A DNA stretch of 64,000 nt from a virus: positions 35,016 to 99,015 of the IMG/VR virus record IMGVR_UViG_3300027747_004722, one strand, 5' to 3'. How positions within the stretch are numbered: the stretch's first letter is position 1; each line of letters starts with the position of its first letter. The position numbers were made by a program, and so were the translations under genes. Under the pieces are notes generated by a model, which worked only from the letters and a program-made list of their open reading frames with translations, was not told the origin of the DNA and made no database searches. Below, in pieces: positions 31,888 to 35,323 of the stretch.

Positions 31888-32493
31888 ATGAGCGACGATA
31901 TTGACCGCCACACGCGGCACAGGATGGACGAAAGGACGGAGGAGGACTTCCGTACCGACATGTTCCAGTTCACCGAGAAGGAGAGGCTCTGGGGAGAGGT
32001 GCTCCAGCAGGAATTCGGGGCCCGACGCAGCCAGTGCTTGGTGGTCGAGAGCGGGGTCGACAACACCGGCTCCGTGATTCAAGGCAGACTCGCCAACTGC
32101 AACCCCGACAAGTTGTATGTGTTCCCGGGTCGAGCGGAGCAGAGGTACGTCGAGATCAAGACTATCCCGGAGGGGCACAACAGGTTCCACACCTTCAAGG
32201 TGTCGGCCCTGAAGGGGTGCCTGCAGTACGGGGCTCTCATCATCGTGCCGAAGCTGGATCACTATTTCATGTACGGCGCCAAGGCGATGGAGTTGATGCT
32301 TGAGCGGTGCGATGTCATACCGTTCTTCGGAGGCAAGCCATGCGTGCAGCCGTCGATGACCTTAATCAGGTGGATGGAGTCGCAGGGGTTGGTCCTCAGG
32401 AAGCGCTGGACGCCTGAGGCCCGCACGCTCATCGAGCGTTACAAGGCGACCCTTTTGGCAGACAGGATCACCAACCGCCGCATAGGTGCATAG
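31888..32493 (+). CDS. Putative PD-(D/E)XK nuclease
   Basis: E...NPDKLY...YVEIKT; AAAGG RBS. Confidence 0.55.
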   Translation: MSDDIDRHTRHRMDERTEEDFRTDMFQFTEKERLWGEVLQQEFGARRSQCLVVESGVDNTGSVIQGRLANCNPDKLYVFPGRAEQRYVEIKTIPEGHNRFHTFKVSALKGCLQYGALIIVPKLDHYFMYGAKAMELMLERCDVIPFFGGKPCVQPSMTLIRWMESQGLVLRKRWTPEARTLIERYKATLLADRITNRRIGA

Positions 32494-32501
32494 TTTCATG
32501 T

Positions 32502-32538
32502 GGGCCGGCCGGGACAAATTCCCGGCCGGCCCTCTTTT
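32502..32538 (+). terminator. Intrinsic terminator
   Basis: GGGCCGGCCGGGA-CAAAT-TCCCGGCCGGCCC-TCTTTT. Confidence 0.75.
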
Positions 32539-32555
32539 GAACGAGAGGGACGAGA

Positions 32556-35108
32556 ATGGAGGACGCCAAGAATGAGCGAGGTCGGATGCTGGATAATACC
32601 CAAGTCAATCACATCGAGTTGTGCGCCGGGTACGGCGGAATTGGTCTCGGACTATCAAGAGTTGTCCGAAATCTGCGCACAGTCGCTTTTTGTGAGATCG
32701 AAGCCTTCGCCGTCGCGAACCTGGTCTCTAAAATGGAAGAGGGACTCCTGGACCCAGCTCCTATTTGGTCGAATATCAAGACTTTCGACTTCGGAAAGTT
32801 TCACGGACTGGTGGACATCATCTCTGGCGGGTATCCGTGCTTCAAAGCAGGAACCATCGTCTGCACATATAGAGGATTCATCCCCATCGAGCAGGTCGTC
32901 GTTGGAGACATGGCTCTCACTCATCTCGGAAGGTGGCGAAGGGTCACCGCCGTCATGTCTAAACCTGGCGCCCCTGTCAGAAGGATCAAGGCGCAGGGCG
33001 TCCCGGGCATCGTCTGCACCGACGAACATCCCTTCTATACAAGGGACGGATGGAAGGACGCCAAGGACCTCAAGCGAGGGGACAGAATCGGTCAGGTGCT
33101 CCCTGAGGTTGTGGAGGACGACAGAAGCCCCGAGTTCTGGTGGGTCATCGGACGATACCTCGCAGACGGATGGAGACAGAAGCCTCCAACCCAGCATTGT
33201 GGAAGAATCACAATCTGCTGCGACCACAAGGAGGCGGACTTCCTCCAAGATAAAATCGCCGCCGCAGGGTTCCACTTCTATAGGAACACAGAAAGAACCG
33301 TCACTAGATTTGCCATCGTCAAGAAAGAACTCTACGAGTTCTGCGGACAGTTCGGATCCGGAGCCGCTGGAAAGCATCTCCCTGGATGGGTTCTTGGCCT
33401 TGATTCCGAACGGGCGAGGGCCCTCTGCAACGGCTACTTCACCGGAGACGGCCACAGAAGCCACAGATCAGGAAGTAAGTGGAGCGCCACAACAGTCAGC
33501 AGGGGCCTGTCTGTTTCTTTCGCCCTCCTCGCTCAAAGGGCTTTCGGAGTGGTTGCTTCAGTCAGAAAGCAGGAAGTCAAACCCAAAACAATCATTGAGG
33601 GCCGAACTGTCAATCAGCGACCCCAGTATATACTTACGGTTCCTGACCGAAATCGATCCGGAAAGGTTGAGGGAAACTACGGCTGGAAGTACGTCAGACA
33701 CAACGAGCCATGCGGAGTTGCCGATGTATACAACATCGCCGTCGACGAGGACGAGAGTTACTACGCCGACGGGGCCATCGTCCACAACTGCCAGCCGTTC
33801 TCCGCAGCAGGAAAGCGAAAGGGAAAAGAAGACGAACGACACCTCTGGCCCTGGATCGCAGATGGCATTCGACTTTGTGAACCAAGACTGTGCCTCTTCG
33901 AGAACGTCGAAGGACACATCTCGCTGGGACTCTCCACAGTCGTCAGCGACCTGGAAGAAATGGGTTACGATGTGTCGTGGGGAATATTCAGCGCGGCTGA
34001 AGTCGGCGCCCCTCACCAGCGCAAGCGGGTCTTCATTCTCGCCGCGAGAGATGGCTGGATGGCCCTCGCCGACCGCATCGGACTCGAACGCCCGCGGGAC
34101 GTCGCAGGGCAACAGGAATTCCCCGAACTTGCCCATATCGGTTCTGGAGAACGAAGCCGCGTGGCCGACGCCCCGCACGACGGACACGCAGGCGGGGCGG
34201 GGGTGTGTGCAGATAGGGAAGGGTCTGTACAGGCCGAGCAAGGCTCTGGAGGAGGGAAAGCTCGTCGGGGGCGCAAACCTCGCGGACGCGGTGACGGAGG
34301 GGTGGCCGACGCCTCGGACGCAGGACTCGAAGCACGGGGAGTGCACCCAGTACGAGCTCAACAGGGACAAGGGGAAGGACCTGCTCCATGTGCGGGTGGA
34401 AAGAGAGAAGATGTGGCCCACGGCTACGGCGAGGGACTGGAAGGACAGCCCGGGCATGTCGACGGTCTCGAAGAACCCGGACGGCTCCGTGAGGAACAGG
34501 ACGGACCTCCTTCCCCGCGCCGTGTACGCGCTTGGCCAGCAAGGCCAGGACAACAGCAATTCTGGTGGGAGCCTCCCCGCGTCGTCGGGCCAGTCCCAGC
34601 AAAACTGGCAGACTTTTGCGCCAGGAACCAACTGCAGGGGGGAGACTCCCCACAGGCAGGTGGTGAAGGCTCTGGTGAACGGGGACAAGCTGAAGACGCA
34701 GTGCCTCACGGTGGACCAGGTGTTCGCGGAGGAGATCAAGGGCACGAACAAGCAGAGGGAGACCTGGCCGACGCCGGTGGTAACGGACAGCATCGGCTCG
34801 GGGAACAGGAACCTGGAGGGCTCGAAGGCCCACGCGGGGGAGAGCCTGACGGACGTGGTGAACGGCGGCCAGAAGGCGAGGGTCAGCAAGAACACGGGCA
34901 AGCTGAACCCCCGCTGGGTGGAGACTCTCATGGGGGTCCCAGTTGGCTGGACCATGCCGAGCTGTACCTCTCCTGTGACAATAGAACCGACGAGCTGAGG
35001 CTACTCGGCAACGGCGTGGTGCCGGCAACCGCGGAGACCGCCTTCAGGATCCTCCTCGCGGAGATGTGGCAAAAGAGCCTCGGCGGACCTTCGCCAAGGG
35101 ACATATAG
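32556..35108 (+). CDS. C5-cytosine DNA methyltransferase, alpha chain (motifs I-VIII and X), intein-containing
   Basis: ELCAGYGG, CEIEAF, GYP|intein|CQPFS, ENVEG, PHQRKRVF, LRLLGNGVVP. Confidence 0.92.
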   Translation: MEDAKNERGRMLDNTQVNHIELCAGYGGIGLGLSRVVRNLRTVAFCEIEAFAVANLVSKMEEGLLDPAPIWSNIKTFDFGKFHGLVDIISGGYPCFKAGTIVCTYRGFIPIEQVVVGDMALTHLGRWRRVTAVMSKPGAPVRRIKAQGVPGIVCTDEHPFYTRDGWKDAKDLKRGDRIGQVLPEVVEDDRSPEFWWVIGRYLADGWRQKPPTQHCGRITICCDHKEADFLQDKIAAAGFHFYRNTERTVTRFAIVKKELYEFCGQFGSGAAGKHLPGWVLGLDSERARALCNGYFTGDGHRSHRSGSKWSATTVSRGLSVSFALLAQRAFGVVASVRKQEVKPKTIIEGRTVNQRPQYILTVPDRNRSGKVEGNYGWKYVRHNEPCGVADVYNIAVDEDESYYADGAIVHNCQPFSAAGKRKGKEDERHLWPWIADGIRLCEPRLCLFENVEGHISLGLSTVVSDLEEMGYDVSWGIFSAAEVGAPHQRKRVFILAARDGWMALADRIGLERPRDVAGQQEFPELAHIGSGERSRVADAPHDGHAGGAGVCADREGSVQAEQGSGGGKARRGRKPRGRGDGGVADASDAGLEARGVHPVRAQQGQGEGPAPCAGGKREDVAHGYGEGLEGQPGHVDGLEEPGRLREEQDGPPSPRRVRAWPARPGQQQFWWEPPRVVGPVPAKLADFCARNQLQGGDSPQAGGEGSGERGQAEDAVPHGGPGVRGGDQGHEQAEGDLADAGGNGQHRLGEQEPGGLEGPRGGEPDGRGERRPEGEGQQEHGQAEPPLGGDSHGGPSWLDHAELYLSCDNRTDELRLLGNGVVPATAETAFRILLAEMWQKSLGGPSPRDI
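32572..34998 (+). CDS. Overlapping +1-frame methyltransferase beta chain (WPTP repeats, motif IX-like)
   Basis: GGAGG 9 nt before ATG; 808 codons without a stop; six WP(T/S)P-like repeats; LNPRWVETLMGVPVGWT. Confidence 0.8.
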   Translation: MSEVGCWIIPKSITSSCAPGTAELVSDYQELSEICAQSLFVRSKPSPSRTWSLKWKRDSWTQLLFGRISRLSTSESFTDWWTSSLAGIRASKQEPSSAHIEDSSPSSRSSLETWLSLISEGGEGSPPSCLNLAPLSEGSRRRASRASSAPTNIPSIQGTDGRTPRTSSEGTESVRCSLRLWRTTEAPSSGGSSDDTSQTDGDRSLQPSIVEESQSAATTRRRTSSKIKSPPQGSTSIGTQKEPSLDLPSSRKNSTSSADSSDPEPLESISLDGFLALIPNGRGPSATATSPETATEATDQEVSGAPQQSAGACLFLSPSSLKGLSEWLLQSESRKSNPKQSLRAELSISDPSIYLRFLTEIDPERLRETTAGSTSDTTSHAELPMYTTSPSTRTRVTTPTGPSSTTASRSPQQESEREKKTNDTSGPGSQMAFDFVNQDCASSRTSKDTSRWDSPQSSATWKKWVTMCRGEYSARLKSAPLTSASGSSFSPREMAGWPSPTASDSNARGTSQGNRNSPNLPISVLENEAAWPTPRTTDTQAGRGCVQIGKGLYRPSKALEEGKLVGGANLADAVTEGWPTPRTQDSKHGECTQYELNRDKGKDLLHVRVEREKMWPTATARDWKDSPGMSTVSKNPDGSVRNRTDLLPRAVYALGQQGQDNSNSGGSLPASSGQSQQNWQTFAPGTNCRGETPHRQVVKALVNGDKLKTQCLTVDQVFAEEIKGTNKQRETWPTPVVTDSIGSGNRNLEGSKAHAGESLTDVVNGGQKARVSKNTGKLNPRWVETLMGVPVGWTMPSCTSPVTIEPTS
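32838..33788 (+). mobile_element. Intein (317 aa) with LAGLIDADG homing endonuclease
   Basis: CFKAGT start, TDEHPF block B, IGRYLADG and NGYFTGDG motifs, YNIAV..DESY, VHN|C end. Confidence 0.95.
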
Positions 35109-35111
35109 TCA

Positions 35112-35296
35112 ATCGGCCGGCCCCCGGGAGTTGAACCCGTGAGGCTGGCCGAAAAGACCCGGAGCCGAAAGCCCTACATGTGCGACACAAGCGGGGCTTG
35201 TGCGTTCGGAACGGTCAGCGCCGAGCGAACCCAAGGTCTATTCAGACTTGATCTGGGGGGGCTTCCCTTAAGGGAAATCCCGCACTAATTTAGTGT
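35112..35296 (+). ncRNA. Candidate structured non-coding RNA
   Basis: Six or more consecutive hairpins in an intergenic gap, beginning just after CATATA; strand inferred. Confidence 0.4.
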
Positions 35297-35323
35297 ATTA
35301 CGCATCAATTCTGGGAGGGTTCG

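Follow-up and report, generated by a model that had tools for sequence, protein, structure and literature searches.

C5 DNA methyltransferases built from two polypeptides encoded in overlapping frames are represented by M.EcoHK31I of Escherichia coli HK31, whose target is YGGCCR (Lee, Kam and Shaw 1995, as related in PMC2836561 and PMC3404938). In these two accounts, the alpha chain holds motifs I to VIII and X, motif IX lies on a beta chain encoded in another frame inside the alpha gene, and both chains are needed; removal of the beta start codons abolishes methylation. We analyzed a comparable gene in a 64,000-nucleotide stretch of viral DNA (the window; positions 35,016 to 99,015 of the 99-kb IMG/VR virus record IMGVR_UViG_3300027747_004722, estimated by CheckV to be 20% complete). 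Frame A of this gene encodes an alpha chain interrupted just before its catalytic Cys by a predicted LAGLIDADG homing-endonuclease intein, and frame B (the +1 frame) runs through the whole intein without a stop codon. The usual view is that an intein answers to no constraints other than its own splicing and homing functions and the host protein that it interrupts.

By its motif order, the host gene can be assigned to the two-frame C5 methyltransferases of the M.EcoHK31I kind, with motifs I to VIII and X in alpha and motif IX on a predicted beta chain in another frame. The two systems differ in several respects. In M.EcoHK31I, beta is short, embedded and internally started, and the recognition domain resides in alpha, whereas the window beta would be nearly co-extensive with alpha, start at the 5′ end and carry a set of WPTP-like modules, and an intein is present. 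M.AquI-type beta chains carry both motifs IX and X; in contrast, frame A holds motif X both in the window and in 34 of 36 intein-free relatives, and the beta frame holds it only in the loci L020 and L042. In these two loci alpha ends earlier, giving an M.AquI-like split of the motifs, and frame B is still open from the alpha start.

Inteins have been described in phage DNA methylases, including gp75 of actinophage Dorothy and its relatives (Gosselin et al. 2023, PMC9957025). The window intein is homologous (25–34% identity) to the LAGLIDADG inteins in the methylases of Dorothy (gp75), Escherichia A4, Erwinia Y3 and Mannheimia 587AP2. Unlike the window intein, the cultured-phage methylase inteins have 11–24 +1 stops and a basic +1 translation, as expected under neutrality. 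In mycobacteriophage methylases, the ShiLan domain and the Pacc40 insertion conceal HNH homing endonucleases that are encoded out of frame (Arsenault et al. 2025, PMC11855218). Like the window element, they are mobile insertions in a methylase that are stop-free, and read as filler, in a frame other than that of the endonuclease. However, they lack a splicing domain and their read-through frame is the host's only frame, whereas the window element has a complete splicing domain in frame A and would leave one chain by splicing and stay in the other by read-through.

The window intein also resembles PI-SceI, PI-PfuI and TliVMA (PDB 1vde, 1dq3 and 7qsu) in its Hint fold, two-motif LAGLIDADG endonuclease, Cys1, TxxH and terminal HN followed by Cys; unlike it, these three inteins sit in single-frame genes. 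To our knowledge, a second-frame constraint has been reported for none of them. In agreement with the first-pass annotation of this DNA, which knew of no described intein under dual-frame constraint, our literature search yielded no account of an overlapping frame that constrains an intein, and a search on WPTP motifs returned nothing relevant. The two-frame methyltransferase, the phage methylase inteins and the stop-free read-through of homing elements have thus all been published before, and the constraint on the intein is what is new.

The first-pass annotation had placed a 317-codon intein before the catalytic Cys of alpha and described the +1 frame across it as open. Both statements were borne out: the intein borders are exact (…GGYP/CFKAG…VHN/CQPFS… in frame A), and the +1 frame (positions equal to 1 modulo 3) is stop-free from 32491 to 34996. 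In the third frame, 35 stops occur within 32300–35300, and the +2 frame of the intein has 11, matching expectation. When the intein codons were resampled from genome usage, 11.6 ± 2.7 +1 stops were expected and none of 5000 resamples was stop-free; permutation of the intein's own synonymous codons gave an expectation of 3.2 stops, with a probability of 0.0076 for zero. For the whole N part (498 codons), 5.8 stops were expected from its own codons (P = 0.0002). Other genes in the window contain ~3–5 +1 stops per 100 codons. The shuffling of synonymous codons, which had been suggested as a check, therefore confirmed that the absence of +1 stops in the intein is far beyond chance.

The codon choice of the intein was correspondingly unusual. 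Its 76 NTx codons comprise 55 NTC, 13 NTT, 6 NTG and 2 NTA, so that NTG and NTA account for 8/76 as against 34–49% in reference genes, and none of these eight is followed by a stop-making base. The 834-codon stop-free run of frame B is the fourth longest in the window. As had been claimed for same-strand shadow open reading frames (ORFs), no other run of comparable length lies almost wholly within another run on the same strand; frame B inside frame A is the only such case. The translated shadow of the intein is rich in Ser, Thr and Pro, again as first described, these residues making up 42% of it. A search with this shadow against 5.8 billion proteins gave no match, which is uninformative on translation because gene callers that skip overlapping ORFs would produce the same result. 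Across the dual-coded N part, 13 independent pairs gave 212:96:346 substitutions at the three codon positions, and the N-extein gave 14:8:11 between the window and its closest relative, L003; the pattern looks flatter than that of a single-frame gene, both counts being without matched control genes.

The insertion has the features of a class 1 intein with a LAGLIDADG endonuclease, presumably active in splicing and homing. In an alignment of 24 sequences (the window and 23 homologues), C1, T61 and H64 (block B TDEH, the TxxH motif), H316 and N317 are invariant, and the next residue is the catalytic Cys of PCQ. The Asp residues of both LAGLIDADG motifs, GRYLADG (D110) and GYFTGDG (D204), are likewise invariant. 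An AlphaFold2 model (predicted local distance difference test 95.5, predicted template modelling score 0.91) has a predicted Hint fold with an inserted double LAGLIDADG fold. Foldseek matched this model to TliVMA, PI-SceI and PI-PfuI at E = 3e-18 to 1e-13 (best E = 3e-18, with a template modelling score of 0.71 to 7qsu) and to I-DmoI for the endonuclease core. Pfam bit scores were slightly under each curated cut-off (Intein_splicing 29.5/35.8, LAGLIDADG_3 22.3/22.5, Hint_2 21.7/28.4), a shortfall that is offset by the structural match; no PDB sequence matched the intein at E ≤ 0.001.

The intein is precisely absent from L003, which is 97% identical in motifs IV–VIII, and from ~35 further viral-contig loci, where the N-extein and motif IV–VIII segments are contiguous. 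More than 330 intein homologues were found, with PF00145 in 120/120 among the matches listed, and all 23 aligned homologues share the same Pro/Cys insertion site. Homologous inteins at this site of C5 methyltransferases also occur on giant-virus metagenome-assembled (GVMAG) contigs (L297, L298, L300 and L305); these have 27% G+C and 22–30 +1 stops.

To compare homologous inteins, loci were fetched by intein alignment (80 viral and 80 metagenomic), and the 140 complete inteins formed 61 clusters at 75% identity; the comparison is without the DNA of the nearest intein relatives, P0005–P0008 (proteins 68–82% identical), which was not recovered in viral-contig scans with the window intein, P0005 and P0008. 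The number of +1 stops was sharply bimodal: 12 of the 61 clusters had none, no cluster had 1–3, and 49 had 4–33. In the 49 stop-bearing clusters, the observed counts were close to the expectation from permutation of their own codons. In all 12 zero-stop clusters, the host +1 frame was open over ≥102 nt on the upstream side of the insertion point and ≥353 nt on its downstream side, while such +1-open flanks were present in only 7 of the 49 others (Fisher table 12,7 / 0,42; p = 2.9e-8). In each zero-stop lineage, the +1 ORF joined host frame B without a break at either end. An independent retrieval supplied a 13th intein free of +1 stops, L293, and also giant-virus methylase inteins with 26–30 stops in closed-frame hosts. 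A comparison with related inteins at the Pro/Cys site had been proposed with the original prediction, and its outcome favors it: zero +1 stops occurred only where the host +1 frame was open on both sides, and the counts were normal elsewhere.

On an intein tree from a quick IQ-TREE search, the distribution of the zero state called for at least 7 changes, of which well-supported branches made at least 4 unavoidable, and sister pairs differed by 0 versus 27 and 0 versus 19 stops. Zero-stop inteins also occurred at 40–45% G+C, with 24–32 stops in the +2 frame. Six cultured-phage inteins in single-frame methylases (Pacc40, Escherichia A4 and ph0011, Mannheimia 587AP2, Erwinia Y3 and Lactobacillus Nyseid) contained 11–24 +1 stops, and in five of these phages the host +1 frame was not open on both flanks. 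The exception, Mannheimia phage 587AP2, is open for 72 nt upstream and 578 nt downstream, and its C-extein looks disrupted after CQ.

The largest cluster, from gut phages, comprised 45 distinct sequences that diverged at up to 22% of their nucleotides and showed 482 variants. Against an expectation of ~30 variants that create a stop, no haplotype carried a +1 stop, which suggests that +1 stops are still being purged in this cluster. As a separate observation, the genes at gut-phage loci L056 and L125–L204 (e.g. L056:2403-3810) encode conventional single-chain C5 methyltransferases with the recognition domain and motifs IX and X all in frame 0. Genes of the L056 type contain a +1 ORF that begins 102 nt ahead of the motif IV Cys and runs to 352 nt past it; its borders are identical in 71 of 73 intein-free loci, and it ends in a …GGMMQNG…DILEGEVPQKYFLS-like segment. 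One intein lineage keeps this ORF open (0 stops, 68 sequences), and it is broken in the sister L232 and in Lactobacillus phage Nyseid (18–19 stops).

The composition of the +1 product was also distinctive. The +1 translations were charge-neutral in the 12 zero-stop clusters (net charge per residue −0.052 to +0.003) and basic in all 49 others (+0.013 to +0.234), without overlap (Mann–Whitney U = 0, p = 1e-7). Since avoidance of stops touches only codons with T in the second position and a shift in charge needs other codons, this difference suggests that selection acts on the +1 product at the protein level.

In the window gene, two plus-strand ORFs overlap almost fully, frame A at 32556–35108 and frame B at 32500/32572–34998 (Table 1). 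Frame A contains, in order, motif I (LCAGYGG), GGYP, the 317-residue insertion, CQPFS (motif IV), ENV and QRKRVF, followed after motif VIII by a spacer of ~315 Gly/Arg/Glu-rich residues and then motif X, GNGVVP. Frame B contains shadows of the N-extein, the intein and motifs IV–VIII, and its last 315 codons form five WPTP-like modules and LNPRWVETLMGVPVGWT (motif IX). Upstream of the recognition modules, frame B is Ser/Thr/Pro-rich and no Pfam family was detected there; the PF00145 and PHROG methyltransferase matches belong to frame A.

Table 1. Features of the two-frame methyltransferase gene, in window coordinates
Feature	Positions	Strand	Details	Basis
Terminator-like hairpin closing the upstream gene	32502..32538	+	13-bp G+C stem, 5-nt loop, T run	Read from sequence
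Shine-Dalgarno-like GAGAGGGA upstream of alpha ATG 32556	32543..32550	+		Read from sequence
Alpha precursor ORF, frame A, 850 aa	32556..35108	+	533 aa if spliced; second in-frame ATG 32586	
GGAGGA within alpha codons 1–3	32558..32563	+	8 nt 5′ of frame-B ATG 32572	
Predicted beta ORF, frame B (+1), 808 aa from ATG 32572	32572..34998	+		
Predicted LAGLIDADG homing-endonuclease intein, frame A	32838..33788	+	317 codons; frame B stop-free, Ser/Thr/Pro-rich and charge-neutral here	
Frame-A motifs IV (PCQ, catalytic Cys), VI (ENV) and VIII (QRKRVF)	33789..34050	+	Frame B also open	
Frame-B target-recognition region (WPTP-like modules) and motif IX (LNPRWVETLMGVPVGWT)	34051..34995	+		
Frame-A motif X (GNGVVP) and alpha C-terminus	34995..35105	+		

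Third-position G+C, which is ~0.85 in the genes of this genome, was 0.87 in frame B at 34051–34995 and 0.82 in frame A at 34995–35108, and just 0.61–0.64 in frame A of the whole N part including the intein. Frame B at 34051–34995 therefore bears the coding signature of the genome. Across the same recognition region, the frame-A spacer has no stop against 5.95 expected (P = 0.0007), showing that frame A is held open there by selection. A third open frame, a stop-free run of 480 codons, lies antisense to the recognition region on the minus strand (33558–35000); it is probably a by-product of the G+C-rich third positions in frame B.

We then considered intein-free relatives of the host gene. Queried with tblastn, the frame-B recognition region matched genes annotated as 'DNA methylase' in Rhodobacter phages and others, and each match lay +1 relative to the annotated ORF. 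Forty viral-contig loci were fetched, and the N-extein, motifs IV–VIII, the recognition region and motif X were all detected in 36. The recognition region was in the +1 frame in all 36, and motif X was back in frame A in the 34 mentioned above. The frame-B recognition region and motif IX were conserved in ~40 loci. Frame B was open from the alpha start in nearly all of the 38 scored viral-contig loci and in Rhodobacter phage RcIroh, often with an A-TGA overlap; L002 departs from this pattern.

One subfamily (L001, which is RcIroh gp22, with L002, L103, L262, L273 and L211) shares the frame-B segment GS.LF.LTWKER.TPSGR...LRAS.RRTSG. This segment overlaps the conserved stretch of alpha between motifs VI and VIII, and ~35–40 codons there seem to encode recognizable motifs in both frames. 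In GenBank, only the frame-A ORF of this subfamily's gene is annotated, as 'DNA methylase'.

The position of the beta start is central to the interpretation. The first-pass annotation had put it upstream of the intein, and the sequence around the 5′ end supports this placement. The frame-B ATG at 32572 has a perfect GGAGGA 8 nt upstream, and most intein-free loci retain an ATG for frame B where the gene begins. The usual form at these loci is ATGTGGATA, in which frame B opens with the ATG and frame A can start only at the overlapping GTG. At the loci with this ATGTG dual start (L006–L012, L015, L020 and L042), the frame-B ATG and the frame-A GTG stand behind a single Shine-Dalgarno sequence, so the two chains may share an initiation site. 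The window gene differs by an additional C within 32556–32590 (ATGcTGGATAAT versus ATGTGGATAAT in the family), which has moved the ancestral ATG into frame A (32586), and the new frame-B ATG with its GGAGGA lies 14 nt upstream of the shifted one. A GTG at 32500–32502 opens the longest frame-B ORF and was rejected as the beta start, because it lies within the stem of the terminator hairpin of the upstream gene.

Taken together, we consider it likely that the intein is stop-free in the +1 frame because the beta chain of a phage two-frame methyltransferase is translated through it. The gene would be read in two overlapping same-strand frames, as is M.EcoHK31I. Frame A would give alpha, with motifs I–VIII, a filler spacer and motif X, and frame B would give beta, with filler followed by the recognition modules and motif IX; the two chains would both start where the gene begins, no more than ~30 nt apart, beta from 32572, and then assemble. 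The LAGLIDADG intein would have homed into frame A just 5′ of the motif IV catalytic Cys. In alpha it would excise itself, and in beta the same 951 bases would be translated as a 317-residue filler. Since a stop in frame B of the intein would truncate beta ahead of its functional part, selection would have purged all +1 stops, through a shift from NTG/NTA to NTC/NTT and through safe neighboring codons, and would also have held the beta filler charge-neutral and polar. With somewhat less confidence, we regard as fairly probable a broader interpretation, in which such lineages are 'bilingual': they would encode a splicing and homing protein in one frame and a selected, stop-free, charge-balanced, disordered spacer in the other, allowing an intein to colonize a two-protein gene.

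Several observations weigh against translation of beta through the intein and favor an alternative in which beta starts past it, at ATG 33862, 33970 or 34051, with the open +1 frame inherited or incidental and unneeded by the enzyme. The M.EcoHK31I beta is short and starts internally, and according to PMC2836561 internal Met codons can replace its start. The window itself has further frame-B ATGs at 33724, 33862, 33970 and 34051. In L002, a +1 stop occurs 31 nt past the insertion site, just beyond motif IV. Furthermore, eight intein clusters in +1-open hosts (seven of the 61, namely L103, L262, L273, L228, L271, L232 and L224, as well as L295/L296/L306 from the independent retrieval) carry 8–19 stops, and the L046 intein carries 24, with beta downstream in the +1 frame and an upstream flank open for only 72 nt; a downstream start must work in such two-frame hosts. 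In L103, L262, L273, L232, L271, L046 and L213, the +1 frame is open over the last 70–200 nt of the intein and includes a frame-B ATG 38–146 nt before the intein end, which could be a restart site for a short beta or could be due to chance. Read-through is therefore not obligatory but one solution rather than the rule, and beta can probably also start downstream in some lineages. The earlier proposal that the intein could persist only by keeping the second frame open is supported, since the outcomes for all three refuting conditions named with it (shuffles, homologous inteins and beta start) favor it, but it does not extend to every lineage: the 12 zero-stop clusters all have +1-open hosts, but inteins in other +1-open hosts carry stops. 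For the window and the zero-stop lineages, however, a downstream start leaves unexplained the 0 versus 11.6 expected stops and the codon shift, the association of zero stops with +1-open flanks in 12–13 lineages with saturated synonymous sites, the charge neutrality, the purging within the gut-phage cluster and the conservation of a 5′ ATG in frame B. The window's downstream ATGs also lie in weaker Shine-Dalgarno contexts than ATG 32572. We therefore consider a start past the intein improbable here.

The remaining alternatives explain less of the data. The order of motifs I–VIII in frame A, the recognition region and motif IX in frame B, and motif X in frame A again is what two compensating programmed frameshifts (+1 after motif VIII and −1 before motif X) would join into a single chain, with the open alternative frames being non-coding. 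Frameshifting, however, would tolerate stops in frame B 5′ of motif VIII and in frame A over the recognition region, and selection keeps both open; the experimentally studied relative, M.EcoHK31I, works as two chains. This makes a frameshifted single chain very improbable. Just as improbable is the idea that the +1 ORF across the intein is a functional protein or domain of the intein's own, such as a homing helper, rather than beta filler. The charge of the +1 product does appear to be under protein-level selection, and out-of-frame genes hidden in methylase insertions are known (PMC11855218), but the product is of low complexity and Ser/Thr/Pro-rich, has no Pfam family and no homologue among the 5.8 billion proteins searched, and its ORF runs on into host frame B on both sides in every zero-stop lineage. 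Base composition alone, that is, a G+C-rich and T-poor sequence that lacks stops by chance, could draw on the rarity of T on this strand and on the open antisense run. It was refuted by the shuffles and the comparative distribution, and practically no weight can be given to it: the +2 frame of the same intein has its 11 stops, neighboring genes have 3–5 +1 stops per 100 codons, and zero-stop inteins at 40–45% G+C coexist with 24–32 +2 stops.

Translation of beta through the intein would thus mean that the second frame of the host shapes the codon choice and composition of a mobile element over ~1 kb, as appears to have been repeated in at least 12 diverged lineages. The bimodal stop counts (0 versus 4–33) and the full separation by net charge make this a quantitative case of selection from an overlapping frame. 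If the 'bilingual' interpretation is correct, the same kilobase is under three layers of selection, and the inteins amount to an insertion experiment done by nature, with the result that translation of the second frame in these methyltransferase genes begins at the 5′ end. This would be independent evidence that a phage methyltransferase family that is very common does translate its long second frame; annotations usually show its genes as a single protein whose Gly/Arg-rich middle makes no sense. It would also show a way for homing elements to enter overlapping genes without destroying them, which may be of use for the annotation of phage methylases and the design of overlapping genes.

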